Assembly (NCBI GenBank): GCA_039584815.1
Contig: JBDGXC010000007.1
Location: forward strand, 8,440-72,439
From: Gemmatimonadota bacterium
GTDB lineage: Bacteria > Gemmatimonadota > Gemmatimonadetes > Palauibacterales > Palauibacteraceae
DNA: 64,000 nt
Reading direction: 5' to 3'
Under the pieces are notes generated by a model that was not told the origin of the DNA, did no database searches, and saw only the letters and a program-made list of their open reading frames with translations. Below, piece after piece: positions 28,901 to 52,590 of the stretch. Made by a program: the position numbers and the translations under genes. Numbering within the stretch: position 1 is the first letter of the stretch; the number at the start of each line of letters is the position of its first letter.

Positions 28901-30464
28901 TGGCCTCCAGCTCCGAGGCATGGCGCTCGGCCTCCTGCTCGACGGCCTGGCGGGCGGCCTCGAGCTCCGCCGTACGCCGCGCCGCATCTTCCTCGGCGGC
29001 CCGGCGGGCGTGCTCGGCCGCCTCCAGTGTGGTCTCGAGCTCGAGGGCGCGCCGCTCGGCTTCCTCCTCCGCCAGCCTGCGGGCCTGCTGCACTTCTTCT
29101 ACCCGCCGTGCCGCGTCCTGCTCGGCCGCGATTCTCGCCAGCTCCTCCGATCGTCGCCGTTCGGCTTCCTGCTCCGCCGCCTGGCGCGCGGATTCTGCCT
29201 CGGCCGCCTGGCGCGCCGCCTCCTGCTCCGCCGCTTCCCGGGCTTCCTCCTGCTCCGCCACCCGGCGTGCGGCGTCCGCTTCCGTGGCGCGCAGGGCTGC
29301 TTCGAGCTCGGCGACTCGCCCTTCGGCTTCGACCGCCGCCTCGCGCAACGACTTCAGCTCGCTGACGCGCCGATCGGCCTCATGCTCCGCCGCGCGTGCG
29401 GCAGCTTCAGCCTGGCGAGCCAGGTCCTCCGCCTGTCGCCGCTCTTCGGTGGCGCGGGCCTCACTCTCGGGCGGTGCCTCCGATGTGCGCTGGGCCGCTT
29501 CCTGCGCCGCGGTTCGCGCGGCTTCGAGCTCGGCGGCCTTTTGCTCGGCTTCCCGTTCGGCCTCGAGAGCCGCCTCTTCCGCTGCTCTCCGCTGCTGATC
29601 CAGATCCGCGGCGGTCCGGGCAGCGGCGGCCAGCAGCGAGCGCCGCGCGATCTCCTGGGCGAGCGGACTGGAGAGATCCGAACCGCGGCCCGGCCGCCTC
29701 GTGATCCAGGATGGACGCGCGCTCACGCCGGTGCCGTTGCCTTCCGACCGACTCGGGAGCGCCTCCAGGTTCTCGCGGACGATCTCGGCGTCCGTTTGCA
29801 CGTTCGTCCAGTCGAGCAGAGTGCGGCGCTCGCCCTCCGACAGCGACTCCGTCGCCACGACTTCGTGGAAGGGCAGGGGCTTCCTGCCGATGTTGCCTCC
29901 CGATGTCTGGCGGAAGAAACCGCCCCGGGGGGACTCGCCTTCCGGGGCGACCAGCACCGCACTGTGCCACACCTCGCCGAAGTACTTCCTGTGCGTGGCG
30001 ATCTCCGCGTCCGTCAGCTCGATTCCTCCGTCGCGGTGACGCAGGTACCAGCCGACCAGATTGCCGGAAAGCCGGCCGGCTTGCTCGCGCAGGGCGTCCC
30101 ACGCCTCCGGGGGAATCATGTCTCCGGGATCGCTGATCAAGGGGATCCGGGATCGGCATACACCGCTGATCAGGACGTACGGCCGGCCGTCCTCGATGTC
30201 CTCGCACAGGTCACCCGACAGCAGACCGAACGGACGTTCGTTCCTGGAGGCTTTCCGCAGGTGATTCAGGAGGTCCGCGAGGGCGCGCTGCGTGATGAAG
30301 ACGTCGTAGGCTCCCCCGACCGGGTGTTCTTCCGATTCGGAGGGTGTCCACAGGATGCTCCGCAGCAGGGGGCGCGGCACGGATATGTGAAAACGCTCCG
30401 GCGTGCTCCCGGAGTTCACACCTTCATCAGGCTTCGAGCGCCCGTCGACTATCGCATCCGTCAT
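25926..30464 (-). CDS. Giant (1512 aa) membrane-anchored coiled-coil protein. N-terminal degenerate MPN/JAB-like domain, roughly 960-aa repetitive E/A/R-rich rod, one TM helix, and a roughly 230-aa C-terminal domain.
   Basis: Residues about 60-175 match the MPN fold pattern (VFITQRALADLL..FGLLSG...NLVGWYLRHRDGG..TDAEIATHRKYF..VWHSAVLVAP), but the JAMM HxH site is RHR and the Ser is replaced by Thr. The rod is built from units like AEEEAARRAAELEAARQAAE. The TM helix is NVAAAIAILAAGAFGV. Confidence 0.75.
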   Translation of the reverse strand: MTDAIVDGRSKPDEGVNSGSTPERFHISVPRPLLRSILWTPSESEEHPVGGAYDVFITQRALADLLNHLRKASRNERPFGLLSGDLCEDIEDGRPYVLISGVCRSRIPLISDPGDMIPPEAWDALREQAGRLSGNLVGWYLRHRDGGIELTDAEIATHRKYFGEVWHSAVLVAPEGESPRGGFFRQTSGGNIGRKPLPFHEVVATESLSEGERRTLLDWTNVQTDAEIVRENLEALPSRSEGNGTGVSARPSWITRRPGRGSDLSSPLAQEIARRSLLAAAARTAADLDQQRRAAEEAALEAEREAEQKAAELEAARTAAQEAAQRTSEAPPESEARATEERRQAEDLARQAEAAARAAEHEADRRVSELKSLREAAVEAEGRVAELEAALRATEADAARRVAEQEEAREAAEQEAARQAAEAESARQAAEQEAERRRSEELARIAAEQDAARRVEEVQQARRLAEEEAERRALELETTLEAAEHARRAAEEDAARRTAELEAARQAVEQEAERHASELEATLRAANQAREIAEEEAARRAAELEAARQAAGAEAERQATELQETLRVADEARRAAEEEAARRAAELQETLRAADEEAARQAAELQAARQAAEEETVRQAAELQAARQAAEEEAARQAAELQETLRAADEARRAAEEEAARRAAELQAARQVAEEEAARQAAELQETLRAADEARREAEAEAARRAAELEAARQTAEEEAARRTAELEAARQAAEEEAARQAAELQATVQAAEAARRAAEAEAERKAAEATAAIKAAEEEAARRAAEAEAAREAAEREAERRQAEAEAHEAAIADAVRRVAEMETARKVAEEEAARWAAEAETARREAEDEARRRSLELEETRRAAEEARVAAEEEAARRAEEVELSRRTAEESEQRAREAEEARRIAQSDADKYRSEEALRRDAETVAIQKAAELEAARKAAEEEAARRATEVEEARRTAAREAARREAEAAARRAAEAEAERIAGTLNAERKSAAQEATIRDARAEAALEAARREAARRREEEDARRAAEVEAAARVKEVEASLLESRLEAERRAEEARAAVEAAAREAELRQAAEEETARRSLQLEGARQAAEDAMRQASEKRAAQEAIQAEAAQKTVEEEAELRATEERIAREVTELEEAKAVAEERAAVLATEAEDAWRTARLESERRKEAEEAAAARVSELEKARQAAEEEAARVAAKARQVAELAREEVSRLRMERTRLEQAVKERATELEALRRAESREIARRREEEGRRATAEAARVQAEEAAREAAVKFARQEVADADARRKAEAEARVRAEVAEAKREKREARREEERRERRERRSRRLRGAGNVAAAIAILAAGAFGVERVMRWTELNPGHTVFDRGSWGADTDGESDGAETPGAARAGQGRVVLPPAVGAEVPAVEDPGAVPASADPRLRTLDQLADSTIAAMTAFRAAAASFEAELIDCEDLRAAFSEVGRLWLTYAVNGVSPLESGLDEERSARHENLAQDANGIEVAYEVSGCPMP
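26700..29620. repeat. Long imperfect tandem DNA repeat (units of about 54-63 bp with variants) encoding the coiled-coil rod of the giant protein.
   Basis: Near-identical blocks such as ctggagctcggcggcctgccgggcggcctcttcctccgccgcctggcgggcggcctggagctcggcggc recur many times between about 28400 and 28700. Degenerate copies are spread over roughly 2.9 kb. Confidence 0.8.
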
Positions 30465-35158: not shown

Positions 35159-37765
35159 TTGTCGGAGCCAACCAGTGTGTCCCGGCGTCGCCGGCGCCCG
35201 GGACTGCGTGTCGGCGCGACGCGCGATGGCAGCTCGGATCGCGCCCACGACCTCGCGCCGGCTGAGGAAGCGACGGCCGTCGATCGGCCATCGTCCGCCG
35301 GAATCGGAACGCCCCGACCCCGCGCAGGGGGAAAGTTCCTGTTCGTCGGCGACGAGAAGCTGTACGTGCGGGGGGCGACGTACGGGACGTTCCGGCCCCG
35401 CGGGGATGATTGCGAGTTCCCCGAGCCGGAGACCGTGGACCGGGACATCGCTCTCATGGCTGAGAACGGCCTGAACGCCTTCCGCACGTACACTCCCCCG
35501 CCGCGCTGGCTGCTCGACCGGGCGGCCGAGCACGGCATGCACGTGATGGTGGGACTGCCGGCGGAGCGCTACATCGGCTACCTGGCCGACGGACGGTCGA
35601 ACGGTGACCCGGACGTGGCGGACGTCGTGCGCGAGGGCGTCGCCGGGTGCGCCGGTCATCCGGCGGTCCTGTGCTACGCGGTCGGAAACGAGATCCCGGC
35701 GGCAGTCGCGCGCTGGCACGACCGCGGCCGGGTGGCGCGGTTCCTCGAGCAGCTGTACCGGGCGGCCAAGGCGGAGGATCCCGAGGGGCTCGTCACCTAT
35801 GTGAACTACCCTTCGACCGAGTACCTGGATCTGCCGTTCCTGGATCTGCTCTGCTACAACGTCTTCCTCGAGAGCCGGCGGGACTACGATGCCTACCTGG
35901 CGCGCCTCCAGAACGTCGCGGGCGACCGTCCCCTGCTGATGACGGAAGTGGGTCTGGACAGCCTGAGGAACGGAGAGGAGGCGCAGGCCCGGTCCCTCGA
36001 CTGGCAGGTGCGGACCTCCTTCGAGGCGGGTTGCGCCGGAGTGTTCGTGTACTCGTGGACCGACGAGTGGTATCGGTCGGGCGAGGACGTGCACGACTGG
36101 GCCTTCGGTCTGACGCGCCGCGATCGCGAGCCAAAGCCGGCACTCACCGCGGTGAGCGAGGCGTTCGGGGCCGTCCCGTTCGCCGAAAACGGAAAGCTGC
36201 CCCGCATCTCGGTGATCGTCTGCACGTACAACGGTGCGCATACGCTGGCGGAATGTCTCGCCGGCCTGGAGAGAGTGGAGTATCCCGACTACGAGGTGAT
36301 CGTGGTCGACGACGGCTCGCGGGACGGCTCTGCCGCGATCGCCGATCGTTTCGACTGCCGGGTGATCCGCACGCCGAACCACGGGCTCAGCAGCGCCCGC
36401 AACACCGGCCTCGCCGCCGCGACGGGAGACATCGTCGCGTACATCGACGACGACGCGTATCCCGACCCGCATTGGCTCGCCTACCTGGCGGCCGCGTTCC
36501 GTCGGGCCGACCACGCCGGCATCGGCGGCCCCAACATCGCGCCACCCGGCGACGGATTCCTGGCCGAGTGCGTGACCAACGCCCCCGGCAACCCGGTGCA
36601 CGTCCTCCTGACGGACCAGGTGGCCGAGCACATTCCGGGCTGCAACATGGCGTTCCGCAAGTCGGCTCTGGAAGCGGTCGGTGGCTTCGATACCCAGTTC
36701 CGGGTGGCGGGCGACGACATCGACGTGTGCTGGAAGATCCAGGAAGCGGGCGGGACCCTGGGCTTCTCGGCCGCCGCCATGGTGTGGCACCATCGGCGCG
36801 GAGAGCTCAAGACCTACTGGAGGCAGCAGCTCGGGTACGGCCGGGCCGAGGCGGCGGTGGAGCGCAAGTGGCCGGCCAAGTTCGGTCCCGCGTGCCAGGT
36901 GGCATGGGGCGGGAGGCTGTACGGGAGAGGACTCAGCCGCACGCTCGGCTGGTCGCGGGGTCGCATCTACCACGGGGTGTGGGGCGCGGCGCCGTACCAG
37001 TCCCTGTACGAGCCGGCGCCGGGCCTGCTGAGATCCTTGCCGCAGATGCCCGAATGGCACCTGCTGAGCGCCGCTCTCACCGGGTTCGTGCTCCTTGGTC
37101 TCAGCTGGCCTCCTCTGCTGCTGGCGGCGATTCCACTCGCGTTCACAGCCCTCGCTTCGCTGCTGCACGCCGTAGCGAGCGCCGTGGGGGCGGACTTCGG
37201 AGACGACCACGGCGATGTCCTCCTGCGCTGGCGGAGACGAGCGGTCACCACGGCCCTGTACCTCATTCAGCCGGTGGCCCGTCTGTACGGCCGCGTGAGT
37301 GGCGGCCTCACCCCGTGGCGCAGCGTCCCCGCTTACGGATTCGCACTTCCGTGGCGCTCGACGAAAGCGATCTGGACGGAGCACTGGCGGGCGACGGAAG
37401 ACCGACTGCACGACATCGAGACGGCCCTGAACGCTGACGGGGTGTTCGTGGTTCGTGGCGGCGACTTCGATCGCTGGGACCTCGCGGTGTACGGGGGCGT
37501 CTTCGGCTCGGCGCGCCTGCTGATGGCCGTCGAAGAGCACGGCTGCGGCACACAGCTCGTGCGGATCCGACTGTGGCCACGCTGGTCACCCGAGAGGCTG
37601 CTGCCTACGGTGCTGCTCGGAGGCCTCGCGCTCGGTGCGTGGCTCGACGGTGCGTCGGTCGCGGCCGTCGTGCTGGGAGCGGTGTTCCTGCTGGGCGGCT
37701 GGAGAGTGCTCAGGGATACGGCGTCCGCCTGCTTCGCGTTGCGGCACGCCGCCGAACAGGCCTGA
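35159..37765 (+). CDS. Tripartite fusion: clan GH-A TIM-barrel glycoside hydrolase-like domain, family 2 glycosyltransferase, and a C-terminal multi-TM domain.
   Basis: GH-A catalytic signatures AVGNEIP (acid/base) and LLMTEVG (nucleophile). GT2 region ISVIVCTYNGAHTL...VIVVDDGSRDGS...AYIDDDAYPDPHWL...CNMAFRKSAL. At least four hydrophobic helices after residue about 690. TTG start preceded by the RBS ggggaggag. Confidence 0.8.
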   Translation: MSEPTSVSRRRRRPGLRVGATRDGSSDRAHDLAPAEEATAVDRPSSAGIGTPRPRAGGKFLFVGDEKLYVRGATYGTFRPRGDDCEFPEPETVDRDIALMAENGLNAFRTYTPPPRWLLDRAAEHGMHVMVGLPAERYIGYLADGRSNGDPDVADVVREGVAGCAGHPAVLCYAVGNEIPAAVARWHDRGRVARFLEQLYRAAKAEDPEGLVTYVNYPSTEYLDLPFLDLLCYNVFLESRRDYDAYLARLQNVAGDRPLLMTEVGLDSLRNGEEAQARSLDWQVRTSFEAGCAGVFVYSWTDEWYRSGEDVHDWAFGLTRRDREPKPALTAVSEAFGAVPFAENGKLPRISVIVCTYNGAHTLAECLAGLERVEYPDYEVIVVDDGSRDGSAAIADRFDCRVIRTPNHGLSSARNTGLAAATGDIVAYIDDDAYPDPHWLAYLAAAFRRADHAGIGGPNIAPPGDGFLAECVTNAPGNPVHVLLTDQVAEHIPGCNMAFRKSALEAVGGFDTQFRVAGDDIDVCWKIQEAGGTLGFSAAAMVWHHRRGELKTYWRQQLGYGRAEAAVERKWPAKFGPACQVAWGGRLYGRGLSRTLGWSRGRIYHGVWGAAPYQSLYEPAPGLLRSLPQMPEWHLLSAALTGFVLLGLSWPPLLLAAIPLAFTALASLLHAVASAVGADFGDDHGDVLLRWRRRAVTTALYLIQPVARLYGRVSGGLTPWRSVPAYGFALPWRSTKAIWTEHWRATEDRLHDIETALNADGVFVVRGGDFDRWDLAVYGGVFGSARLLMAVEEHGCGTQLVRIRLWPRWSPERLLPTVLLGGLALGAWLDGASVAAVVLGAVFLLGGWRVLRDTASACFALRHAAEQA

Positions 37766-37777
37766 GAGGTGCTTCCG

Positions 37778-39580
37778 ATGGATCGACACCGCGCGGGCGA
37801 TCTCGGCCTGTACCGGCGTATGTTGGCCCAGGCCCGGCCGTACCGGGCTCATTTCGTGGCCTACATGCTGCTGGCCCTGCTTCAGAGTCCCATCGCGCTC
37901 CTGAATCCGGTGCCTCTGAAGATCGTCGTCGACTCCGCCGTGGGCTCGGAGCCGTTGCCGCGGCCGCTCGACGCCCTGCTCCCCGCAGCCTTCGCGGAGT
38001 CCGGGGCGGCGGTTCTCGTGTTCGCGGTGCTGCTGCTCGTCGCGATCGCCCTGCTCGGCCAGCTGCAGTCGCTCGGAAGCCAGCTGGTGCGCACGTACAC
38101 GGGAGAGAAGCTCGTCCTCGATTTCCGGGCGCGACTCTTCCATCAGGCCGAACGTCTGTCCCTGTCGCATCACGACACGCGTGGCGCTTCGGAGTCGGTG
38201 TACCGGATTCAGCGCGACTCCGCGGCAATCAGGAACGTCCTCGTGGACTCCCTGATTCCGTTCGTCTCGGCGATCGTGACGCTCGTCGCCATGCTGTACG
38301 TTACGCTCAGGATCGACTGGCAGCTGGCGCTGGTCGCTCTGTCCATCACTCCGGTCCTCCTGTTCCTGACGGGGAGGTACCGCTGGCGCATGCGGCGACA
38401 GGCGCGCACGGTGAAGAGGATCGAGAGCTCCGTGTGGGCGCTGGCTCAGGAAACGATGGGCGCCCTGCGGGTCGTGAAGACATTCGGCAGGGAGGCGGGG
38501 GAGGCCCGCCGGTTCGCCGATCGGGCGGGGCTCGGGGTGTCGGCCCGGCTCCGGCTGACCGTGGTGGAGGGCAGCTTCGGTCTCCTCATCGGCCTGACGG
38601 TCGCGCTGGGTACGGGAGCCGTGCTGCTCATCGGTACCCGGCACGTGATGGCCGGGCTCCTCACGCTCGGCGACCTGCTCCTCGTGATGGGGTATCTTGC
38701 CCAGTTGTACTCGCCCCTGAAGACGATCAGCCGCAAGGTCACGGGTCTGCAGACGTACCTGGCGAGCGCAGAGCGCGCCTTCGAGCTGCTCGACACGGAG
38801 CCGGACGTCCCGGAGCGTCCCAATGCCCGACCCCTCGACCGGGCGCTGGGAGCGGTCGAGTTCCGCGACGTGTCGTTCGCCTACGAGGGCGGGGAGGCGG
38901 TTCTCCACGATGTCTCCTTCGACGTCGCCGCGGGCAGTCGGGTGGCGCTGACGGGCGAGACGGGGGCGGGCAAGACTACCCTGATCAGCCTGCTGACGCG
39001 CCTGTACGATCCGACCACCGGGTCGATCCTCCTCGATGGGACGGACCTGCGCGATGTCAGGCTTGCCGATCTGCGGGCCCAGTTCGCGGTGGTCCTGCAA
39101 AGCCCGGTGCTGTTCTCGACGACGATCGCCGAGAACATCGCCTACGCCCGCCCGAACGCCGCGACCACGGAGATCGTTGCCGCTGCGCAAGCCGCCGGGG
39201 CGCACCACTTCATCACGGGTCTTGCGAAGGGCTACGATACGCAGGTGGGAGAGCAGGGGATGATGCTGTCGGGCGGAGAGCGCCAGCGGGTCTCCCTGGC
39301 GCGGGCGTTTCTGCGGGACGCTCCGCTGTTGATCCTCGACGAGCCCACGAGCTCCGTGGACCTGGCCACCGAAGCATTGATCCTCGACGCGATGGAGCGC
39401 CTGATGGAGGGGCGCACCGTGTTCCTCATCACGCACCGGCCGAGCTCGCTCAGCGGCTGTGACACGCGACTCGTCATGCGTGGCGGGCGCCTGACCGCGT
39501 CGGCGCGCCCGGACTCTCGGACGCGGCACGCTCCCCCGACGTGGCGCTTTCCGCAGCTGGACTCGGAGGTCGAACGGTGA
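37778..39580 (+). CDS. ABC exporter, fused permease and ATPase (MsbA-like half-transporter).
   Basis: Six N-terminal TM helices. Walker A GETGAGKTT, signature LSGGERQRVSLARA, Walker B LILDEPTSSVD, H-loop ITHR. Confidence 0.9.
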   Translation: MDRHRAGDLGLYRRMLAQARPYRAHFVAYMLLALLQSPIALLNPVPLKIVVDSAVGSEPLPRPLDALLPAAFAESGAAVLVFAVLLLVAIALLGQLQSLGSQLVRTYTGEKLVLDFRARLFHQAERLSLSHHDTRGASESVYRIQRDSAAIRNVLVDSLIPFVSAIVTLVAMLYVTLRIDWQLALVALSITPVLLFLTGRYRWRMRRQARTVKRIESSVWALAQETMGALRVVKTFGREAGEARRFADRAGLGVSARLRLTVVEGSFGLLIGLTVALGTGAVLLIGTRHVMAGLLTLGDLLLVMGYLAQLYSPLKTISRKVTGLQTYLASAERAFELLDTEPDVPERPNARPLDRALGAVEFRDVSFAYEGGEAVLHDVSFDVAAGSRVALTGETGAGKTTLISLLTRLYDPTTGSILLDGTDLRDVRLADLRAQFAVVLQSPVLFSTTIAENIAYARPNAATTEIVAAAQAAGAHHFITGLAKGYDTQVGEQGMMLSGGERQRVSLARAFLRDAPLLILDEPTSSVDLATEALILDAMERLMEGRTVFLITHRPSSLSGCDTRLVMRGGRLTASARPDSRTRHAPPTWRFPQLDSEVER

Positions 39581-40581
39581 GCACGCACGCGCTCGTGGTG
39601 CCACCGGACACGGCGGAAAAGATCCTCCGGTCGTGCATCGAGGACGGCCCGCGAAGGGACTCGATCCCCCCGGGAGGCATCGCCGACCTGAGCGTGACGC
39701 CGTTCGAGGGAACGACTGCGTTTCCGACCTACGTGGTCCGTGTCCGGTGGACGGAAGGAGGGGGGCGCACGCTGTTTCTCAAGACGTTCGGCTCTTCGCA
39801 ACTTCCCAAGCGGCGCCTGGGGGAACGGCGCGAACGAGAGCTGAAGGTGTACCGGGACCTGCTCGACGGCCGGGAGCTCGGGACCGCACACTACTACGGG
39901 GCGATGTGGGATGATGAACGATCACGGTTCTGGCTGCTGCTCGAGTTCGTGGACGCCTCCCAGCTCCGTTCCCTCGGCTTCGACCACTGGGTGCGCGCTG
40001 CGGCGTGGCTCGGACGCATGCAGGGAACGCTGAGCGGGAATCCACCCCGCGGGTCCGACACCGAGCTCCTGGTGTCTCACGATGCCGAGTTCTTCACGGC
40101 CATGGCCCGGGAGGCGCTCGCTGCGGTGACCGGTACCTCGCCTGCCCTGGGATATCGGCTGGCGGCCGTGCTGGAAGACTACGATCGCATCATCGAGGTC
40201 ATGACGACTCAGTCCCGCACGCTCGTGCACGGGTCCTACCGCTCCCAGAACATCCTCGTCGATCCCACCGGAGACCGCGTCTGCCCCGTGGACTGGGAGC
40301 TCGCGGCGTGGGGGTCGCCTCTGTACGACCTCGCCTTCCTGTGCGACGGCTTCCGAGCTCCGCGGCTCCACACTCTGTGGGACGCCTACCTCGACCAGCT
40401 GGCTGCGCATGGCGGCCCCGTCCCCGTCCTCGAGGAGCTACCACGGGTCGTGGAGTGCTTCCGTCTCCACAAGCAGGTGAAGTCGCTCAGCGATTCTGTG
40501 CGCCTGGAGTTCCCGGCTCACTCGGTCGCCAAGCTGGTGGGGCTGGCGGAAGCCATGCGGCCCGGTTGCCGGACGGAGTGA
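39577..40581 (+). CDS. Protein-kinase-fold phosphotransferase (APH/ChoK family, PF01636-like), paralogue 1.
   Basis: Brenner-type catalytic loop LVHGSYRSQNILVD and metal-binding PVDWELAAWGSPLYDLA. The GTG start overlaps the ABC exporter stop (GTGA). Confidence 0.75.
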   Translation: MSTHALVVPPDTAEKILRSCIEDGPRRDSIPPGGIADLSVTPFEGTTAFPTYVVRVRWTEGGGRTLFLKTFGSSQLPKRRLGERRERELKVYRDLLDGRELGTAHYYGAMWDDERSRFWLLLEFVDASQLRSLGFDHWVRAAAWLGRMQGTLSGNPPRGSDTELLVSHDAEFFTAMAREALAAVTGTSPALGYRLAAVLEDYDRIIEVMTTQSRTLVHGSYRSQNILVDPTGDRVCPVDWELAAWGSPLYDLAFLCDGFRAPRLHTLWDAYLDQLAAHGGPVPVLEELPRVVECFRLHKQVKSLSDSVRLEFPAHSVAKLVGLAEAMRPGCRTE

Positions 40582-40587
40582 AGGGTG

Positions 40588-41571
40588 ATGACTTACGTGA
40601 TCGATGCGCGTGAGCACCCGGCCGCCCAGGCCTGGCTTCGGATTCGCGGCAACGGACAGGAGGTGACGGCCGTCACTTCCGTTCGGGGAGCTACGACCCG
40701 TCGGGGCGTGTGGCGCCTCGAGCTCGCGAACCGGGGTCCCTCGCCCGTCATCGCCAAGCGCTGCCTCACGCAGTCGGCGCGCGTCGAGCGCATCGTGTAC
40801 GAGGACGTGCTTCCGGGTCTTCCGGTGTCGGCTCCGCGCTGTTTCGGAGCCTGGGAAGAGAGCTCCGAGTACTCGTGGCTGTTCTTCGAGGACGCCGGCG
40901 CGGAGCGCTTTTCGTCCGCGGATCAGGAACTGCGCGCGCTGGCGGCGCGGTGGCTGGCGGCCTTGCACCTCGGCACGACCGACCTGCGCCTGGGAGACGG
41001 ACTCCCACGGCGCGATGCGGAGCACTACCTGGGCCTGCTGTGTCTGAGCAGGGACACGATTCTGCGCGATCTCTCCAATCCCGCGTTCGACGGCGCGGAC
41101 CGGGCGGTGCTGGACGATGCCCTCGCAGAACTGTATCGGATAGAGTCCGAGTGGCCGCGCGTGGAGCGATTCTGCGATCGGATGCCTTCGGCGCTCGTGC
41201 ACGGCGACTTTCGCTCCAAGAACATCTTCGTGCGTCGCGCGGGCCCGGAAACGGAGCTGCTGCCGATCGACTGGGAGACGGCGGGCTGGGGAGTCCCGGC
41301 CGCCGATCTCGCTCGCTCGAGACACCTGCACGCCGAGCCTGAAGCGGATCTCGCCGTGTACGCGGAGGCGGTGGGCGGCGTGTGGGAGCACGTCGATGAG
41401 ACGGCCGCCCGGCGCCTGTCGGAGGTGGGACTGGTGTTCCGTCGCCTGATGGCCATCGCCTGGGCGAGCGAGAGCCTGCAGTATCCGTGGCCCGTCACGC
41501 CCCTGGCGAGGATCCAGCTCTACGTGTCCGAGATCTCCGATGCCCGTGCAAGGGGAGCCTGGCCGCCGTGA
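40588..41571 (+). CDS. Protein-kinase-fold phosphotransferase (APH/ChoK family), paralogue 2.
   Basis: LVHGDFRSKNIFV and PIDWETAGWGVPAADLA. Starts 7 nt after the paralogue 1 stop. Confidence 0.75.
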   Translation: MTYVIDAREHPAAQAWLRIRGNGQEVTAVTSVRGATTRRGVWRLELANRGPSPVIAKRCLTQSARVERIVYEDVLPGLPVSAPRCFGAWEESSEYSWLFFEDAGAERFSSADQELRALAARWLAALHLGTTDLRLGDGLPRRDAEHYLGLLCLSRDTILRDLSNPAFDGADRAVLDDALAELYRIESEWPRVERFCDRMPSALVHGDFRSKNIFVRRAGPETELLPIDWETAGWGVPAADLARSRHLHAEPEADLAVYAEAVGGVWEHVDETAARRLSEVGLVFRRLMAIAWASESLQYPWPVTPLARIQLYVSEISDARARGAWPP

Positions 41572-41612
41572 GGCGTATGCGTTCCGGCGGCCGAACATCA
41601 GGAAGGAGTCAC

Positions 41613-42656
41613 ATGCAGGAGATTCTGAGCAACCTGGGTGAGGATACGGGGCAGGCGGGGCTCGAGGAGCTGGGCGAGGCGGTCGCCGGCGTGCTCGGGG
41701 CTCCGGGTCCGGGCGGTCGGAATATCCGGACCGACCAGCTCAAGGCCGGCGTGTACCGCCTGCACGTGAACGGCGGGGGAGACGCTCGCTCGCTGATTGC
41801 CAAGCGGCTCGATCCGGACATCGCACACCGGAACCGACTCGTGGCCGATCGCTGGCTACCGACGCTGCATCTCGGCCACTGCGGCCCGATCCTGCTCGCC
41901 GTCGCCGCGGAGCGAGCCGGCGCCTGCGTGTGGCACGTGTACGAGGACCTCGGACACCGGACGCTGAAGGACGTGGATCACGACGAGGACTACGTCCAGG
42001 CAGCCGTTCAGGCCATCGCCGGCATCCACGCCGGTTTCGCGGATCATCCCCTGCTCGGGGAGTGCAGATTGTGGGGAGGAGACCTGGGGCCGCATTTCTT
42101 CCGCTCCAACGTCCACGACGCCATCCGGGCGCTGGCGGGCTTGGAGCCGCCCGCAGTCTCGCTGACGGCGGAGCAGGCCGCGCTGCGGGACCGGCTGCGG
42201 CGCACGCTCGGTCGGCTGGCCGACGAAGAGCCCGCCCGTTCCGCCCGCGTGCGGGAGCTGGGTGGTCCGGAGACCCTCGTGCACGGCGACCTGTGGACCA
42301 AGAACGTCATCGTGATCGACACGTCCGAGGGGCCCCGGGTACGGCTCATCGACTGGGATCACGCCGCCGTGGGGCATGTGAGCTATGATCTCTCGACGTT
42401 TCTCACGCGCTTCGCCCGTGGGACCAGGTCGGGTGTCGTCGAGAGGTACCGGCGGGCGATGGAAGAGGCTGGCTGCGAGCTCCCGGAAGCGGCCGAGCTC
42501 AACGAGCTGTTCGATACCGCCGAAAGGGGCCGCATCGCCAATCGCGTGATCTGGCCAGCGCTGGCGATCCGCGACGGAAATGCGGACTGGGCCTTCGACG
42601 CCCTGGCCGAGATCGAGTCGTGGTTCGAGACCCTGGAACCGGTTCTGGAGGTGTGA
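41613..42656 (+). CDS. Protein-kinase-fold phosphotransferase (APH/ChoK family), paralogue 3.
   Basis: LVHGDLWTKNVIVID and LIDWDHAAVGHVSYDLS. RBS ggaaggag before the ATG at 41613. Confidence 0.75.
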   Translation: MQEILSNLGEDTGQAGLEELGEAVAGVLGAPGPGGRNIRTDQLKAGVYRLHVNGGGDARSLIAKRLDPDIAHRNRLVADRWLPTLHLGHCGPILLAVAAERAGACVWHVYEDLGHRTLKDVDHDEDYVQAAVQAIAGIHAGFADHPLLGECRLWGGDLGPHFFRSNVHDAIRALAGLEPPAVSLTAEQAALRDRLRRTLGRLADEEPARSARVRELGGPETLVHGDLWTKNVIVIDTSEGPRVRLIDWDHAAVGHVSYDLSTFLTRFARGTRSGVVERYRRAMEEAGCELPEAAELNELFDTAERGRIANRVIWPALAIRDGNADWAFDALAEIESWFETLEPVLEV

Positions 42657-42658
42657 CT

Positions 42659-43798
42659 GTGCCCAAGGTCATCGTGTTCACGAAGAAGTGGTCCAGCTGG
42701 CCCGGCTTCGCCGGATCCACGTGGGTCCCGATCCAGTATCTGGCGGGACTGGAGAGACTGGGCGTCGAGGCCTACTGGGTGGACTGGCTGCCCCGGGTCG
42801 ATCAGCACCGCCACGCACACAGTCTCTCGTACCTGATGCGACGATTCGACCAGACGGCAGCGGATTTCGGGTTCTCGAACCGGACCTGCGTCGTGTATGG
42901 CGGGGGACAGCGCCACTTCGGCATGGAAGGGGAGGAGCTCGCGCAACTCACTTCCGAGGCGGATCTGCTCCTGGGATTGAGCTCGAAGGGCCTGCCAGGC
43001 AGGTCGTCCCTCCACCAGGTTCCGCGTCGCGCATACATCGATGTCGATCCCGGCTTCACCCACATCTGGGCCCACCAGGTGAACATGGGCCTCGATGACT
43101 ACAACCTGTTCTTCACCGTGGGTCTCAACGTCGGCGGGCCCGGTTTCGACATTCCCACGCCGGGAATCACGTGGCAGACGATGCTTCCGCCCGTCGTCCT
43201 CGACCTGTGGCCCGCGGTCCCGGACGATCCGTGCGACCGGTTCTCCACCGTCGGGGACTGGTGGGGGAAACAGAAGGCCAAGTACCGGGACAAGTACTAC
43301 GGCGGCAAGAGAGAAGAATTTCTCCAGCTGCTCGAGCTCCCGAAGCTCACCGGCCAGCGGTTCGAGCTCGCCCTGACGATCACGCCGCAGGACCACAAGG
43401 AGATCGGGCGACTCCACCGCGAGCGGTGGACGATTCTCGATCCGTACCTCTACGCCGGCGACCCCCATTCCTACCGGGAGTTCATCCAGTTCTCGCGGGC
43501 CGAGTTCAGCGTGGCGAAGAGCGGATACGTCATGTCCAGGAGCGGGTGGGTGAGCGACCGGACCGTGTGCTACCTCGCATCGGGCAGGCCGGCACTCGTC
43601 CAGTCGACGGGATTCGAGCCGTACCTGCCCACCGGCAAGGGTTTGCTCACGTTCAGCACGCTGGATGAAGCCGTGGCAGGCGTCGACGACATCAACCGGG
43701 AGTACGACGAGCACAGCCGGGCTGCGCGAGCGCTGGCGGAGGAGTACTTCGACTCGGACATCGTGCTGGCATCGCTGCTCGAGCGGGCCGGACTGTGA
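42659..43798 (+). CDS. Putative GT-B-fold glycosyltransferase-like protein (DUF).
   Basis: The C-terminal region VMSRSGWVSDRTVCYLASGRPALVQSTGFEPYLPTGKGLLTF resembles the GT1/GT4 C-terminal nucleotide-sugar binding half. The N-terminus is MPKVIVFTKKWSSWPGFAGSTWV. The GTG/ATG start choice is ambiguous (42653 versus 42659). Confidence 0.45.
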   Translation: MPKVIVFTKKWSSWPGFAGSTWVPIQYLAGLERLGVEAYWVDWLPRVDQHRHAHSLSYLMRRFDQTAADFGFSNRTCVVYGGGQRHFGMEGEELAQLTSEADLLLGLSSKGLPGRSSLHQVPRRAYIDVDPGFTHIWAHQVNMGLDDYNLFFTVGLNVGGPGFDIPTPGITWQTMLPPVVLDLWPAVPDDPCDRFSTVGDWWGKQKAKYRDKYYGGKREEFLQLLELPKLTGQRFELALTITPQDHKEIGRLHRERWTILDPYLYAGDPHSYREFIQFSRAEFSVAKSGYVMSRSGWVSDRTVCYLASGRPALVQSTGFEPYLPTGKGLLTFSTLDEAVAGVDDINREYDEHSRAARALAEEYFDSDIVLASLLERAGL

Positions 43799-43839: not shown

Positions 43840-45114
43840 ATGAAGGCCGCGCGCCCGGTATTCCTGGTGCTCCTGGCGGGCATCGGGGCCGTGGCGGCGC
43901 TCCTGGGGTGTCCGTCCCCGGGGTCATCGCAGGAGGTCGGACCTCCGCTTCGCGTGTTCATCGACTGCGACAACAGCTACTGCGACTTCGACCATTTCCG
44001 CCGGGAGATCATGTTCGTGGACTACATGCGCGACCGGCAGGACGCGGATGTTCACGTTCTGATCACGACTCGCGAGACCGCGAGCGGCGGAACCGAGTTC
44101 CTTCTCGAGTACATCGGAGCGGGAGCGTTCGAGACCGTCGATGACTCCCTACGGACCTTCTCCAGCGACACCGACGTGTTCGATGAGGTCCGCGCGGGCT
44201 TGACGACGATGCTCGAGCTGGGCCTCGTCCGGTACGCGGCGCGCCTCCCGACGGCACACAGACTCGACGTCACGTACGATGCGCCGGACACGACCGGACT
44301 GACGCGTGGGGCGGTCGACGATCCCTGGAACTACTGGATCTTCCGAATCCGGGTCGGCGGAGACATCGCTGGCGAAGAGCGCCAGAGCGTGTTCTCGGCC
44401 AACGGAGCCCTGTCCGCGAATCGGACCACGAAGGACTGGAAGATCAGGCTGTTCGCGTCGGGGTGGTACAGTGAGGACAGCTTCGAGCTCAGCGACGGCA
44501 CGCAGTTCGAGAGCATCGCACGCGAGCTGGGGAGCGGAGCCTTCTTCGCCAGGAGCCTGGGCGACCACTGGGGACTCGGGCTCGACACCGAGGCGCGGGT
44601 TTCCACGTTCCTCAACTACGATCTGGCTCTCGCGGCGGGTCCCGCGGTTGAATACAACATCTTTCCCTACGCGCAGTCGTCGCGTCGGGAGTTCACGTTC
44701 ACGTACCGGGTCGGCGTCAACTACTTCGACTACGAAGAAGTCACGATCTTCGACAAGCTGGAGGAGACGCGCCCCTCCAATTCCCTCGAGATCTCGTACT
44801 CCGTTCGCCAGCCCTTTGGCTCCATCAACACGTCGCTGCTGGGGTTCATGTACCTCGATGACCGTTCCCAGCACCGGTTCGTATTCTCCGCATGGTTCAA
44901 CGTGCGCATCGTGCGCGGCCTGGAGCTCAACCTGAGCGGATCGGCGCAGCGACTGAAGGACCAGATCAACCTGCCGCGGGGCGGCGCGACCGACGAGGAG
45001 GTGTTGCTGCGGCGCCAGGAGCTGGGAACCGACTATCGCTACTCTCTCGGGGTGAGCCTGAGCTACACCTTCGGCTCGATCTTCAACAACGTGGTGAATC
45101 CGCGGTTCGAGTGA
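43840..45114 (+). CDS. Secreted or outer-membrane protein with an N-terminal signal peptide and alternating amphipathic beta-strand-like repeats (possible beta-barrel).
   Basis: MKAARPVFLVLLAGIGAVAALLGCPSP signal sequence. The C-terminal two-thirds are rich in alternating aromatic/polar strands (RVGVNYFDY..LEISYSVRQ..VFSAWFNVRIVRGLELNLSG). Confidence 0.45.
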   Translation: MKAARPVFLVLLAGIGAVAALLGCPSPGSSQEVGPPLRVFIDCDNSYCDFDHFRREIMFVDYMRDRQDADVHVLITTRETASGGTEFLLEYIGAGAFETVDDSLRTFSSDTDVFDEVRAGLTTMLELGLVRYAARLPTAHRLDVTYDAPDTTGLTRGAVDDPWNYWIFRIRVGGDIAGEERQSVFSANGALSANRTTKDWKIRLFASGWYSEDSFELSDGTQFESIARELGSGAFFARSLGDHWGLGLDTEARVSTFLNYDLALAAGPAVEYNIFPYAQSSRREFTFTYRVGVNYFDYEEVTIFDKLEETRPSNSLEISYSVRQPFGSINTSLLGFMYLDDRSQHRFVFSAWFNVRIVRGLELNLSGSAQRLKDQINLPRGGATDEEVLLRRQELGTDYRYSLGVSLSYTFGSIFNNVVNPRFE

Positions 45115-49509: not shown

Positions 49510-52500
49510 TCAGCCTCCAGCGTCTGCCAGGCGCGCCGCCGTGCGAGATGCCTGCGGAGAGTCGGCGCCTAGGTGCGCCACGACCTCGTCGTGACCGTCG
49601 CGCAGAAGCCGCATACCCTCGCCCCGTCGTCCCTGTGCCATGATCGCTGCCCCGAGAAGGCTGGAGGCATCCCCCACGCGCCAGTGCGGCTCCGCGAGTT
49701 CCGCGTAACTCTCCAGCGCCTGGCGCAGCTCGCGCTCGGCCCCCGCCGCATCGTCCGAGGCGAGAAGCGCCTCACCGAGCGGGTGCAGGGCCCGGCCCAC
49801 CGCCGGATGGGGTTCCTCGAACAGTTCGCGGCGTGCCGAGAGCACGGCCTCGAGGTCCGCGACCGCCTCCGAAGATCGTCCCTGCCGAAGCAACAATTGC
49901 GCTCGATCGACGCGCACCGCCTGCATGTACCGATGCCCGGGACGCAGTATTCCCTCCGCGAGGCCCAGGGCCTCCTCGAACAGGTGATCCGCTTCCTCGT
50001 CGTCGCCGCGCGCCACGGCCACGTTGGCCAGCCCATCGAGCGCCATGATCGCGTACACGCTGGTGCGGCCGGCGCCTCGCAGCGCCTCCTCGTACAGAGC
50101 CTCCGCTTCCTCGAGCCGTCCCGCGAGCCAGCGCGGATCGGCGGCTCGCATGAGAGCCATGATGAAGTTGGGGTTCTCCGGTCCGAGTCGCATGCGCTTC
50201 ACCGTGACCGAGCTGTCGGCTGCGGCCGCCGCTTCGGCATAGCGTCCCTGGTGAAACAGGACCGTCCCCAGCCGCTCCCGGACGGTGAGGGTCGTGGAAT
50301 GATCGGGGCCCAGCGCCTCGTTGGCTCGCTGCAGCGCGTCTGCCAGAACGGCCTGCGCCTCGCGGTAGCGACCGGTCTCCCTTAGCGCTACGCCCCACTC
50401 GCTCATCGCCTCGATCACGTCCGGATGTGTCCTGTCGTACAGGGCCGCGCGCATCGCCACCGCCGATCCGGCCAGCCGCTCCGCCTCGTAGACTCGTCCG
50501 CGGAGCCGTCGGATCATCGCGATGTTCACGAGGGCCTCGGCGGCCAGCGGATGGGGGCGCGCGCGGGTCGTGTCGAAGCGTGCCAGCGCCCGGCCGAAAA
50601 CGGCTTCCGCCTCGTCGAACTCCCCCATGTCGTGGTGCGACGTGGCCAGGCCGAACAGTGTAGAAGCGGCGTCGGGATGATCGTCGCCCAGGAGCTCCCG
50701 CTGAATCCCCAGTGCCTCTTCGAACAGGGCCGCCGCTTCCTGGTGGCGGCCCACGGCCCGGAGCTGCCACGCCAGATCCGATTCGGTTCGCGCAAGGAGA
50801 GAATCAGGCCCGGACACGGCACCCCGTCGGACATCGAGCGCGTGCTCCAGGTACTCGATGGCTTCTTCCCGCTCCCCCTGCTCGGCCAGCAGCCGACCGA
50901 CCTGTCCGTAGCTCTCCGAGACCTCCAGACTCTCGGAATCGAGGTGCTCCAACCTGAGCTCGAGAGCCCGCCGGGCGAGCTCCTCCGCCCGCGCGAGAAG
51001 TCCGATGTTGGCGTACACGCCCGCCACGTCCGAGAGCATCGCGGCCTGCATCTCCGGCTGGTCGCCGAATTCCCCTTCGATCCGCTCGGTGCCCCTGTCC
51101 AGGATCTCGCGCGCCGTGACCGTATCGCCCAGGGTTTCGGTCGGATCCGAGAGCCGGAACAGCTCGAACATCAGGTCGCGCTGCTCGGCCGCCAGCTCCG
51201 CCTGGCGGGTCGCGCGGTGAGCCTGTGTGACGGCCGCCACCGAGCCACCGATGAGGGACACGAACACCACGACCGCGGCGCCCACCCAGACGCGGTTCCG
51301 GGACACGTACTTTCGCATCCGGTAGCCGGCGGAGTCGGCTCGCGCTTCGACCGGTCGGCCCTCCAGGTGCCGCTCGAGGTCCTCGACGAGACGCGCCGGC
51401 GAGCCGTACCTGCGCTCCGGCTCCTTGCGGAGGGCCGTGAGCAGGATGCGGTCGAGGTCTCCACGGAGCCGGCGTCGGAGCCTCTGCCGTTCCTCACGAC
51501 TGGCGATGCTTTGCGCGTCAATCTCGAGGGCGAGATACAGGCCGGCCTCTCCCGCCGGCGTCGAGGCCGGGTCCCCGTCATGCGCCGTTCCTGCCGGGTC
51601 GGCAGGCCCGTCGGGGGGGATGAGCGGCGACAACAGCTCGGCGACCGAGCTGGGCGTTGGAGGCGCCGCCTGCAGGATCACTCGCGCCCACTCGGCGGGG
51701 GACCGTCCGGCGATCTGCAGGGGGCGGCGGCCGGTAAGGAGCTCGAACAACACGACACCGAGCCCGTACACGTCCGTCGCCGTCGTGATGTGACCACCCA
51801 GCACCTGTTCGGGGGCCGCGTACTCCGGGGTCATCAGGTGCAGGCCCGTCCGGGTCTTCGGAGCCTCGCCTCCCACCACCGACGGATCCAGGATCTTGGC
51901 GATGCCGAAGTCGAGCAGCTTCACCTCCCCGTCTCGCGTCACGAGGATGTTGGACGGCTTGAGATCCCGGTGCACCACGAGGCTGCGGTGCGCCTCATGC
52001 ACCGCGCGGGCCGCCGTGCAGAACAGTCGAACCCGCTCGGAGACGTCCAGCCGATGCACCCGGCAATACTCATCGATCGGCAGGCCCGGCACGTATTCCA
52101 TCACGAGGTACGGATGGCCGTCCGGGGTCACGCCGCCGTCATACAGGCGGGCGATGTTGGGGTGATCGAGGCTGGCCAGGATCTGTCGCTCGGCCTCGAA
52201 GCGAGCCCTCAGGTCCGCCGACAGCCCCCCGCCGATGACCTTGATCGCCACCTGTCGGAAGAAGTGCCCGTCGTCGCGCTCCGCCAGGAACACCACGCCC
52301 ATCCCACCGCGTCCGAGCTCTCGCACGACACGGTAGATGCCGATACGGAGCGGAGCGGATGCGATCGAGGCATCTTCGAGGGAGGGAGGGAGGCCGAGGG
52401 CGTCGAGCGGCCCCGGACTGTCGAGAATCCCTGCCGGGTGCTCGTGGGCCGCGAGCAGGGACTCCAGCTCACGCCGCAGGTCCGGGTCCTCCCGCTCCGC

Positions 52501-52590
52501 CCGGGCCAGGATCTCTTCCCGTGCCTCCGGGGGGGAGTCGAGGACCTGATCGAACAGCTGGTCGATCAGGCGGCGCCGGTCGCCGCTCAC
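49510..52590 (-). CDS. Membrane-spanning Ser/Thr protein kinase with a large C-terminal TPR domain.
   Basis: GRGGMGVVF...AIK, HRDLKPSNIL, DFG and APE kinase motifs. A TM helix around WVGAAVVVFVSLIGGSVAAV. More than 500 aa of TPR-like repeats follow. Confidence 0.9.
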   Translation of the reverse strand: MSGDRRRLIDQLFDQVLDSPPEAREEILARAEREDPDLRRELESLLAAHEHPAGILDSPGPLDALGLPPSLEDASIASAPLRIGIYRVVRELGRGGMGVVFLAERDDGHFFRQVAIKVIGGGLSADLRARFEAERQILASLDHPNIARLYDGGVTPDGHPYLVMEYVPGLPIDEYCRVHRLDVSERVRLFCTAARAVHEAHRSLVVHRDLKPSNILVTRDGEVKLLDFGIAKILDPSVVGGEAPKTRTGLHLMTPEYAAPEQVLGGHITTATDVYGLGVVLFELLTGRRPLQIAGRSPAEWARVILQAAPPTPSSVAELLSPLIPPDGPADPAGTAHDGDPASTPAGEAGLYLALEIDAQSIASREERQRLRRRLRGDLDRILLTALRKEPERRYGSPARLVEDLERHLEGRPVEARADSAGYRMRKYVSRNRVWVGAAVVVFVSLIGGSVAAVTQAHRATRQAELAAEQRDLMFELFRLSDPTETLGDTVTAREILDRGTERIEGEFGDQPEMQAAMLSDVAGVYANIGLLARAEELARRALELRLEHLDSESLEVSESYGQVGRLLAEQGEREEAIEYLEHALDVRRGAVSGPDSLLARTESDLAWQLRAVGRHQEAAALFEEALGIQRELLGDDHPDAASTLFGLATSHHDMGEFDEAEAVFGRALARFDTTRARPHPLAAEALVNIAMIRRLRGRVYEAERLAGSAVAMRAALYDRTHPDVIEAMSEWGVALRETGRYREAQAVLADALQRANEALGPDHSTTLTVRERLGTVLFHQGRYAEAAAAADSSVTVKRMRLGPENPNFIMALMRAADPRWLAGRLEEAEALYEEALRGAGRTSVYAIMALDGLANVAVARGDDEEADHLFEEALGLAEGILRPGHRYMQAVRVDRAQLLLRQGRSSEAVADLEAVLSARRELFEEPHPAVGRALHPLGEALLASDDAAGAERELRQALESYAELAEPHWRVGDASSLLGAAIMAQGRRGEGMRLLRDGHDEVVAHLGADSPQASRTAARLADAGG

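Follow-up and report, generated by a model that had tools for sequence, protein, structure and literature searches.

Organization of the Operon

The window, the whole 64,000-nucleotide stretch analysed here, contains an operon of seven genes on the forward strand, which encode a GH/GT2 fusion protein, an ABC exporter, three proteins of the APH fold (K1, K2, and K3), a GT-B fold glycosyltransferase-like protein (X1), and a predicted lipoprotein (X2). The intergenic gaps from GH/GT2 to X2 are, in gene order, 12, −4, 6, 41, −4, and 41 bp. The GTG start of K1 (39577) overlaps the TGA stop of the exporter gene (39578–39580), and the K3 stop and X1 start share a GTGA overlap, as at the exporter/K1 junction. 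The original prediction of three head-to-tail genes of 334, 327, and 347 aa, the first start-coupled to the exporter stop, is borne out in strand and coordinates, and JGI gene calls, made independently for these contigs, give K1, K2, and K3 identical lengths. A promoter and terminator scan, uninformative in this 68% GC genome, returned no terminator-like site inside or after the operon and a single weak promoter-like site, after X2. A gene for a lipid-carrier priming enzyme and nucleotide-sugar genes are absent from the operon. An anti-phage defence role was rejected, as PADLOC returned zero matches for K1–K3, X1, and X2.

The GH/GT2 protein (35177–37765, 862 aa) joins an N-terminal clan GH-A-like TIM-barrel glycosidase domain (residues ~45–345) to a GT2 domain (~340–576), with Pfam matches to Glyco_hydro_2_C (E 3e-11) and Glycos_transf_2 (E 2.6e-36); its best NCBIfam match, MftF, is under cut-off. 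Searched against the PDB, the GH-domain profile matches a GH2-catalytic-domain protein (9fz9, E 9e-12) and also the GH158 entry 9oro, which traces to a paper on a GH158 β-1,3-glucanase. A literature search on the domain combination and on 9FZ9, 9G5G, and 9G4N, which are among the best PDB matches to the GH domain, found nothing relevant. The motifs GNEIP and E-x-GLDS are invariant or near-invariant in 16–33 orthologues, and conservation extends to the pair of catalytic Glu residues in GH and to the DxD motif of GT2. Topology was judged from a simple hydropathy scan, which places hydrophobic segments at residues 632–672 and 817–846 and none before residue 632; there is neither a signal peptide nor a membrane segment separating the catalytic domains. 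The protein is therefore predicted to be membrane-anchored with both catalytic domains on the same side.

The exporter (37778–39580, 600 aa) is an ABCB-type half-transporter with transmembrane and nucleotide-binding domains (Pfam ABC_membrane and ABC_tran), and its relatives in the PDB are Sav1866, TM287/288, and MsbA. It stays below the cut-offs of the NCBIfam MsbA model (401 bits, cut-off 602), the glucan exporter model PRK13657 (341 bits, cut-off 733), and chvA (288 bits, cut-off 585). X1 (42653–43798, 381 aa) is better conserved than any other cassette member, with more than 2,653 homologues, many of them 56–65% identical and none named. Its AF2 model (pLDDT 93.8) has the two-Rossmann-domain GT-B architecture, and Foldseek matches it in the PDB to GT72 and GT4-type enzymes, namely T4 α-glucosyltransferase, ManT, BshA, and HepE (E 4e-10 to 1e-8, TM ~0.6). 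The Pfam Glyco_trans_1_2 score, 24.6 bits, is just below the cut-off of 25. X2 (43840–45114, 424 aa) carries an LLGC lipobox, an N-terminal hydrophobic segment at residues 1–28 in the hydropathy scan, and a weak outer-membrane β-barrel-like signal under cut-off (OMP_b-brl_2, E 0.004). A tblastn search of 51 related loci (E ≤ 1e-5) found no match to half or more of the X2 sequence; X2 is accordingly treated as lineage-specific, and its membership in the cassette is doubtful despite the tight gene string.

Fold, Motifs, and Ancestry of the Kinases

K1 (39577–40581), K2 (40588–41571), and K3 (41613–42656; AGGAAGGAG lies upstream) all exceed the gathering score of 23.2 bits for Pfam APH (PF01636), at 59, 46, and 52 bits (E 8e-16, 7e-12, and 1e-13). 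None of the three matches the Kdo/WaaP lipopolysaccharide kinase family (PF06293; KdkA, WaaP) or E. coli WaaP itself. Against choline/ethanolamine kinase PF01633 (threshold 29 bits) K2 scores 15.6, K3 18.9, and K1 not at all, and homoserine kinase type II (NF003558) and thiamine kinase (TIGR02721) give 12.7 to 18.8 bits against cut-offs of 271 and 299. The best scores against antibiotic-resistance phosphotransferase models (NCBIfam Mph, Cph, and related) are 12–23 bits, with cut-offs of 390–650, and those against AmgK and MTRK are likewise far under cut-off. K1 (26.5 bits) and K3 (27.1) pass the 22-bit threshold of ecdysteroid kinase-like PF02958, which K2 (19.5) does not; these matches span the catalytic core only and are overlain by the stronger APH matches. 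Antibiotic, choline, and amino-alcohol kinases are among the nearest structural neighbours, and YihE is among the top ones. When the PDB was searched by sequence, once with K3 by itself and once with a K2 profile, the matches were only marginal (E ≥ 5e-4), and thus there is no characterised close relative. Homologues of all operon members are, without exception, "hypothetical" or generically named. The window kinases have the fold of APH/ChoK/HSK-II-type kinases but reach no characterised subfamily model.

In the H-x-D-x4-N motif of the APH fold, the Asp is the catalytic base. The motifs originally quoted, HGSYRSQN, HGDFRSKN, and HGDLWTKN with DWE, DWE, and DWD, are present, but the claim that each catalytic loop is intact holds for K2 and K3 and fails for K1, in which Ser220 occupies the position of the Asp. 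K2 and K3, which carry the full H-x-D-x4-N and D-x-E/D motifs together with the β3 Lys, are canonical APH-fold kinases by motif and are predicted to be ATP-dependent. Across 36 members of the K2 family, E67, H205, N212, and D228 are present in all, D207 in 35, and K57 in 32. In 36 K3 orthologues K64, H224, D226, N231, and D247 are invariant; the position that visual alignment with K1 and K2 assigns to the α-C Glu is occupied in K3 by a conserved Asn (N74), a departure from APH/ChoK/HSK-II-type kinases. K2 orthologues, at 35–48% identity, occur in many phyla, and the K3 family is small, amounting to 131 clusters when 1.84 billion representatives are searched at E ≤ 1e-30.

The Ser of K1 sets its whole family apart from APH/ChoK/HSK-II-type kinases. 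Of its 120 best homologues, 111 carry HGS and none HGD, the others being HGA, HGC, HGT, and one regex mis-hit; further K1-type copies have Ala, Asn, or Gly at this position. K1 retains the ATP/Mg residues K69, E88, N225, and D239, and such residues are invariant family-wide. K1 is not a conventional kinase, and its loss of the Asp is a trait of the family, not a lesion. With the nucleotide and metal residues in place and the base gone, K1 is best read as a probable pseudokinase that binds ATP and serves K2/K3 or the exporter as scaffold or reader. A less probable role is that of a phosphotransferase for an acceptor that requires no deprotonation, for instance a phosphate or carboxylate. A cassette whose sole kinase is K1-type (HGA; L064) argues against K1 as a mere partner of K2/K3.

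The three proteins were described at the outset as very divergent products of a duplication that was not recent, and both statements stand. K1 and K2 are 29% identical over 270 columns and K2 and K3 29% over 234, while K1 and K3 can be aligned over only 106 residues; the K1 and K2 family profiles match with 99.6% probability at just 22% identity. Overall identity among the kinases is about 28–29%. Neighbour joining of 106 kinases taken from related loci resolves three clades, in which the window kinases group with orthologues from other phyla and not with their own neighbours, and the duplication is therefore ancient. That each kinase may have its own substrate or position, as first suggested, is a reasonable reading.

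A Cassette Conserved Across Phyla

The operon, not previously characterised, is conserved among soil bacteria and spans seven or more phyla (Gemmatimonadota, Chloroflexota, Acidobacteriota, Planctomycetota, Eisenbacteria, Rokubacteria, and Actinomycetota). Its recurrent core consists of GH/GT2, ABC, K2, K3, and GT-B genes, to which a YdjC deacetylase is often added (149 bits against the chitin disaccharide deacetylase ChbG), and genes for NDP-sugar SDR proteins lie beside the cassettes. Of 48 related loci, at least 24, drawn from the phyla named above, show the order GH/GT2-ABC-K2-K3-(YdjC)-X1; the survey started from a single K2 peptide pattern (DWETAGWG), which inflates the frequency of K2 by ascertainment. 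A search for the same triplet elsewhere recovered K1-K2-K3 in L007, L008, L058/L059, and L063, and the variants K2-K1-K3 or ABC=K2-K1-K3 (= denotes fusion) in L044, L062, and L067. The original notion of a conserved set is thus partly correct: the neighbours are conserved and the triplet recurs, but the commonest unit is a K2 and K3 pair to which K1 is an accessory third. Two cultured species, Nocardioides iriomotensis and N. jiangsuensis, carry the cassette.

The number of kinases per cassette ranges from zero (L065) to nine (L068) and scales with the number of glycosyltransferases. The nine-kinase locus also has three GT-B genes, and several of its kinases lack the catalytic base; L064 has one kinase; and L065 has none beside GH/GT2-X1, on a short contig (8.3 kb) with no adjacent ABC gene either. 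Kinases are also fused to their neighbours. K2 is joined to the C-terminus of the exporter in L013, L015, L027, L048, L060, L062, and L067, and K3 likewise in L022, P0416, and P0454. K3 is further fused to GT-B (L027) and to YdjC (P0384), and in P0364, P0388, and P0396 it bears a second APH domain. Through these fusions the kinases are linked with both the exporter and the enzymes of sugar assembly.

Proposed Pathway

Beside the gene content, fold assignments, motif conservation, cross-phylum synteny, and gene fusions observed here, we propose that K1–K3 form the phosphorylation module of an operon that assembles a glycan or glycoconjugate at the cytoplasmic face and exports it, a reading to which we give a probability of roughly 0.55. 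GH/GT2 would make a β-linked sugar chain in the cytoplasm and would probably trim or transglycosylate it. X1 would add more sugar, and in many relatives the YdjC deacetylase would then modify an N-acetyl sugar. K2 and K3 would each phosphorylate their own hydroxyl of the intermediate, and the product, once phosphorylated, would cross the cytoplasmic membrane through the ABCB-type exporter. The cytoplasmic placement is supported by the lack, in the simple hydropathy scan, of a membrane segment before GH or GT2 and by the need of kinases for cytoplasmic ATP. We infer that the kinase substrate is a sugar, in what order the steps follow, and what K1 does. The acceptor cannot be read from the APH fold, and this counts against the glycan-kinase reading. 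A free oligosaccharide and a lipid are both conceivable as acceptors, there being no priming enzyme in the window operon.

A bolder form of the proposal, to which we give a low probability, describes a widespread and so far undescribed pathway in soil bacteria that leads, wholly within the cytoplasm, to a multiply phosphorylated oligosaccharide or glycoconjugate. Its kinases would represent a new family of APH-fold glycan kinases, position-specific and physically coupled to an ABCB exporter, and the base-less K1 clade (HGS/A/N/G) would either gate export by reading the phospho-glycan or act as a kinase on an existing phosphate to form pyro- or polyphosphate decorations.

The fusion of kinases directly to the cytoplasmic end of the exporter would also suit regulatory protein kinases and pseudokinases that act on the exporter or the glycosyltransferases, by phosphorylation or allosterically, and not on a sugar. 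YihE/SrkA, which acts on proteins, and Wzc-type kinases, which control polysaccharide export, are models for such a role. The presence of YihE among the top structural neighbours agrees with it, as does the K1 clade, which lacks the catalytic base like pseudokinase regulators. Nevertheless we consider it unlikely: each operon has several distinct, separately conserved catalytic orthogroups, kinase number tracks GT-B gene number, and the fusions of K3 to YdjC and GT-B suggest a common small substrate, not a protein.

Self-resistance or pro-drug kinases of a small cluster, which would keep a toxic glycoside, built by the glycosyltransferases, inactive in the cytoplasm until the ABC transporter pumps it out, have precedents in streptomycin-6-phosphate and in the capreomycin, viomycin, amicoumacin, and corramycin kinases. 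Here that role is improbable. The resistance-enzyme models score far under their cut-offs, the cassette lacks the scaffold-forming and tailoring enzymes typical of antibiotic clusters, and the same minimal gene set recurs in at least seven phyla in vertical-looking clades. Up to nine kinases per operon, several without a catalytic base, are also hard to fit to it.

The proteins might instead be anomeric sugar-1-kinases of the NahK, AmgK, or maltokinase-like type, working in salvage or activation and supplying sugar-1-phosphates for the donors of both glycosyltransferases, for which we see little chance: neither the window operon nor the recurrent cassette genes include a nucleotidyltransferase converting sugar-1-phosphate to NDP-sugar, a precursor kinase fused to an exporter would be unexpected, and the AmgK and MTRK scores are low. 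Adjacent but unrelated antibiotic-resistance APH genes, favoured by the generic Pfam family name only, are hardly credible and are contradicted by synteny, since the nearest homologues, far from being unlinked resistance genes, keep conserved neighbours in the same cassette at dozens of loci, and no resistance model comes near its cut-off.

If the phosphorylation-module model holds, the bacterial glycan kinases gain a new family of wide phylogenetic range, and the operon points to an exported phospho-glycan not characterised before. Among its hosts, Gemmatimonadota, Acidobacteriota, Chloroflexota, Rokubacteria, Eisenbacteria, and Planctomycetota are phyla dominant in soil whose envelopes and exopolymers are poorly known. 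The kinase-exporter fusions would then be a tractable system for how cytoplasmic modification licenses ABC export, and the K1 clade a rare bacterial case of a conserved pseudokinase with a small-molecule-kinase fold. The two cultured Nocardioides species make the question experimentally approachable.

Comparison with Known Systems

Rhizobial Cgs/NdvB works with the NdvA/ChvA ABC exporter, and known cyclic β-glucan products bear phosphate-containing substituents, which are derived from phospholipids outside the cytoplasm and are not known to come from ATP-dependent kinases. The cassette resembles these systems in combining a GH-A-like TIM-barrel domain, glycosidase or transglycosylase, with a GT2 domain in one membrane protein and in having an ABCB-type exporter. 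Pseudomonad NdvB has a GH17 domain, predicted to be periplasmic, and a GT2 domain (PMC10237404). The window GH domain differs in matching GH2_C and GH158 and not GH17, and by the hydropathy scan it is predicted to lie on the same side as GT2, with no separating membrane segment. With GH family and topology both different, membership among NdvB-type cyclic β-1,3-glucan synthases was rejected, and the likeness is kept as one of working principle only.

Parallels are also found among kinases that modify glycans before export. In Pseudomonas aeruginosa the tandem kinase operon waaP-wapP-wapQ-PA5006 acts on the LPS inner core and is needed for completion of the core and for outer-membrane transport (PMC3147165). 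There, as in the window, tandem divergent kinase genes lie among glycosyltransferase genes in one operon, and the kinases work on the cytoplasmic side on a glycan intermediate, which the ABCB-type exporter MsbA then moves and whose phosphorylation onward transport requires (PMC3147165). The same order of events is proposed here for the window kinases. The WbdD kinase of the E. coli O9a O-antigen caps the glycan ahead of ABC export (PMC3482155). It too is a kinase-fold enzyme that acts on a cytoplasmic glycan made by glycosyltransferases and exported afterwards by an ABC transporter, but it serves a Wzm/Wzt-type transporter, modifies an undecaprenyl-linked polymer, and has a methyltransferase domain (PMC3482155). 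The cassette, in contrast, has an ABCB half-transporter, no visible polyprenyl priming enzyme, and two to nine kinases. The best reading of these comparisons is that the window kinases would work like WaaP/WapP/WapQ or WbdD, yet are not members of those families.

Three Old Kinase Families of the APH Fold

The three kinase genes lie head to tail on the forward strand of a 68% GC metagenome contig that was assembled from several JGI samples. K1 (39577-40581, 334 aa), K2 (40588-41571, 327 aa) and K3 (41613-42656, 347 aa) were located as in the original prediction, independent gene calls agree, and the catalytic-loop and metal-site motifs it quoted are present in the sequences. The GTG of K1 overlaps the TGA of the upstream ABC gene, which bears out the proposed start coupling. 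All three proteins exceed the gathering score of Pfam APH (PF01636; E 8e-16, 7e-12 and 1e-13, respectively) and are new members of this fold. Resistance-enzyme, choline kinase, homoserine kinase and thiamine kinase identities were rejected, as the model scores fall far under their cut-offs.

The strong divergence noted among the three is confirmed by pairwise alignments, which give 28-29% identity, with an alignable stretch of only ~106 residues between K1 and K3. A neighbour-joining tree of 106 kinases from related loci resolves three clades, in which K1, K2 and K3 each lie beside orthologues from other phyla. This grouping supports the view that the trio is not a recent duplication, and K1, K2 and K3 are, judging by sequence, old orthogroups. 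Family alignments show a full catalytic signature in K2 and K3 that is kept in their orthologues. K3 carries a conserved Asn (N74) at the expected αC Glu site, placed by eye against K1 and K2 and not by a cross-family alignment. K3 belongs to a small, well-separated family, with 131 clusters reaching E≤1e-30 in a set of 1.84 billion representatives.

K1 Lacks the Catalytic Aspartate

Kinases of this fold use the Asp of the H-x-D-x4-N loop as catalytic base. The claim that each kinase has an intact catalytic loop fails for K1, whose HGSYRSQN loop has no such Asp. None of the 120 top-scoring homologues of K1 (43-56% identity) has HGD; 111 have HGS, and the remainder comprise HGA, HGC, HGT and one regular-expression mis-hit. 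A 39-sequence alignment of the K1 family shows position 220 as Ser in 37 sequences and Ala in two, while K69 (the β3 Lys), E88 (the αC Glu), H218, D239 and E241 are invariant and N225 is kept in 37. When the K1-family profile is compared with that of the K2 family, HGS falls exactly on HGD with a probability of 99.6%. The catalytic-base position is occupied by Ala, Asn or Gly in additional K1-type copies and by Glu in a sister clade. On these alignments, K1 belongs to an Asp-less family rather than being a damaged copy.

The retention of the Lys, Glu and metal-site residues without the Asp suggests that K1 probably still binds nucleotide and metal but offers no protein base where this fold normally has one. 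The preferred reading of K1 is an ATP-binding pseudokinase serving as a scaffold or reader; alternatively, it may act on an acceptor that needs no base, such as a phosphate or carboxylate. A K1-type protein (HGA) is the sole kinase of one related locus (L064), indicating that the function of K1 does not require K2 and K3.

The Kinases Occupy the Middle of a Carbohydrate Cassette

The kinases form the middle of a tightly packed gene string that runs GH/GT2, ABC exporter, K1, K2, K3, X1, X2, all on the forward strand. The GH/GT2 fusion (35177-37765) carries at its N-terminus a TIM-barrel glycosidase domain (Pfam Glyco_hydro_2_C, E 3e-11) and directly after it a GT2 domain, whose top NCBIfam model, MftF, scores 155 bits and is under its cut-off. 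The best PDB match to the GH-domain profile is the GH2-catalytic-domain protein 9fz9 (E 9e-12), followed by a β-galacturonidase, GH158 and β-glucuronidases. The GNEIP and E-x-GLDS motifs of this domain are invariant or near-invariant among orthologues. Its second Glu aligns with a residue that is Ala in PDB 9g4n, an entry otherwise the same as 9fz9, which suggests that 9g4n is probably a catalytic-residue mutant. A hydropathy scan of the fusion finds hydrophobic segments only at 632-672 and 817-846, a pattern that predicts a cytoplasmic location for both catalytic domains.

The ABCB-type exporter (37778-39580) resembles MsbA, NdvA and Sav1866 and reaches no cut-off among NCBIfam equivalog models. 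X1 (42653-43798) begins at a GTG that overlaps the stop codon of K3 and has no firm Pfam match; its AF2 model (pLDDT 93.8) matches the GT-B glycosyltransferase fold, with T4 AGT, ManT, BshA and HepE as structural matches (E 4e-10 to 1e-8). The string ends with X2 (43840-45114), a predicted lipoprotein with an LLGC lipobox and a weak outer-membrane β-barrel signal, for which tblastn found no match over at least half its length in 51 related loci. PADLOC defence models matched none of K1-K3, X1 and X2.

Two other large reading frames lie on the reverse strand. The first, of 1512 aa (25926-30464), has a globular N-terminus, followed by Ala/Glu/Arg-rich coiled-coil-like repeats (AEEEAARRAAELEAARQAAEEE...) over ~1000 residues and by a hydrophobic segment at its C-terminus; this ORF accounts for the local GC of 72-76% and the strong AT skew. 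The second (49510-52590) encodes a Ser/Thr protein kinase of 1026 aa that includes a long TPR array; it lies ~7 kb downstream of the trio and ~4.4 kb beyond X2, with no apparent link to the cassette.

Conservation and Gene Fusion across Phyla

A scan of species-representative genomes yielded 51 loci; it was seeded with the K2 motif, so that K2 frequency is overestimated. They span Gemmatimonadota, Chloroflexota, Acidobacteriota, Planctomycetota, Eisenbacteria, Rokubacteria and Actinomycetota, and isolates are represented by Nocardioides iriomotensis and N. jiangsuensis. Among the 48 loci for which tblastn or ORF analysis gave a match, at least 24 show the order GH/GT2-ABC-K2-K3-(YdjC)-X1; contig ends interrupt many of the others. 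A search for the same triplet elsewhere found the full trio again, at times reordered or partly fused, in Chloroflexia (L007), Eisenbacteria (L008), Planctomycetota (L044), a complete Chloroflexota chromosome (L063, CP070688.1) and loci L058/L059, L060, L062 and L067. Kinase number ranges from zero (L065, GH/GT2-X1 only, on a short 8.3 kb contig) through one (L064) to nine (L068). The last is a single operon (L068:1-16140, JGI 3300082034) with GH/GT2, ABC and YdjC genes, nine members of the APH family and three X1-like genes of the GT-B type; its K1-type copies have HGN, HGA and HGG at the catalytic-base position.

In 22 loci, K3 and X1 are separated by a YdjC-family deacetylase gene (149 bits against ChbG), and extended-SDR nucleotide-sugar enzymes flank ~11 loci. 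Such SDR genes flank cassettes of several phyla (L007:13199-14428, L008:7654-8757, L010:10929-12716, L048:11861-12838); the motif RIFNTYGPRM is UDP-glucuronate decarboxylase-like by eye, and no NCBIfam model scores above cut-off for the flanking enzyme. The chromosomal locus (L063:3804-11140) keeps ABC-K1-K2-K3-X1 and lacks the GH/GT2 catalytic domains, a 293-aa gene representing only the C-terminal membrane part (577-861) of the fusion. Another locus (L067:11122-16657, GCA_009772855.1) has an ABC-K2 fusion, K1, K3 and X1 adjoining resolvase, relaxase and TraG-like genes, neighbours that hint at horizontal mobility of the cassette.

A K2-type kinase is fused to the exporter's cytoplasmic C-terminus in seven loci (L013, L015, L027, L060, L062, L067 and, in N. 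jiangsuensis, L048), and a K3-type kinase is fused to the exporter in L022 and in the proteins P0416 and P0454. Other partners of K3-type domains are YdjC in P0384, a further APH domain in P0364, P0388 and P0396, and a GT-B domain in L027. Such fusions physically link the kinases with both the exporter and enzymes acting on carbohydrates.

A Proposed Model for Glycan Phosphorylation before Export

For the genes observed in the cassette, their folds and motifs, their synteny and their fusions, the simplest fitting and most likely model is one in which we infer a sugar acceptor, an order of steps and a product. A sugar chain or glycoconjugate would be assembled at the cytoplasmic face, where GT2 would supply β-linkages and the GH-A-like domain would trim or transglycosylate. 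X1 would add more sugar, with deacetylation an extra step in relatives. K2 and K3 would then phosphorylate the sugar intermediate, each at distinct positions, and the ABCB transporter would export the phosphorylated product. A pro-drug or self-resistance cluster, a role for K1-K3 as regulatory protein kinases and one as anomeric sugar-1-kinases are less likely, and each fits fewer of these observations than phosphorylation ahead of export.

All homologues are unnamed or generically named, and no description of the cassette was found in the searchable literature. The proposed biology is plausible and can be tested in cultured Nocardioides.

Comparison with Known Systems

The operon is a variant of the known logic of cytoplasmic modification followed by ABC export. 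The closest systems in function are the P. aeruginosa LPS-core kinase operon and WbdD. Products of waaP-wapP-wapQ-PA5006 act before MsbA and are required for transport (PMC3147165), while the WbdD kinase caps the O9a glycan ahead of ABC export (PMC3482155). WaaP-family membership of the trio was rejected (hhalign probability 0.14% against E. coli WaaP), and a Pfam search found no PF06293 match in K1-K3. Pseudomonad NdvB is likewise a GH and GT2 fusion. Its predicted periplasmic domain, however, is GH17, with membrane helices between GH17 and GT2 (PMC10237404), whereas the cassette's GH domain is of the GH2/GH158 type and is predicted to share its side of the membrane with GT2. What is unusual in this operon is the fusion of kinases to the exporter, the modular growth to nine kinases and the conserved clade of base-less paralogues.
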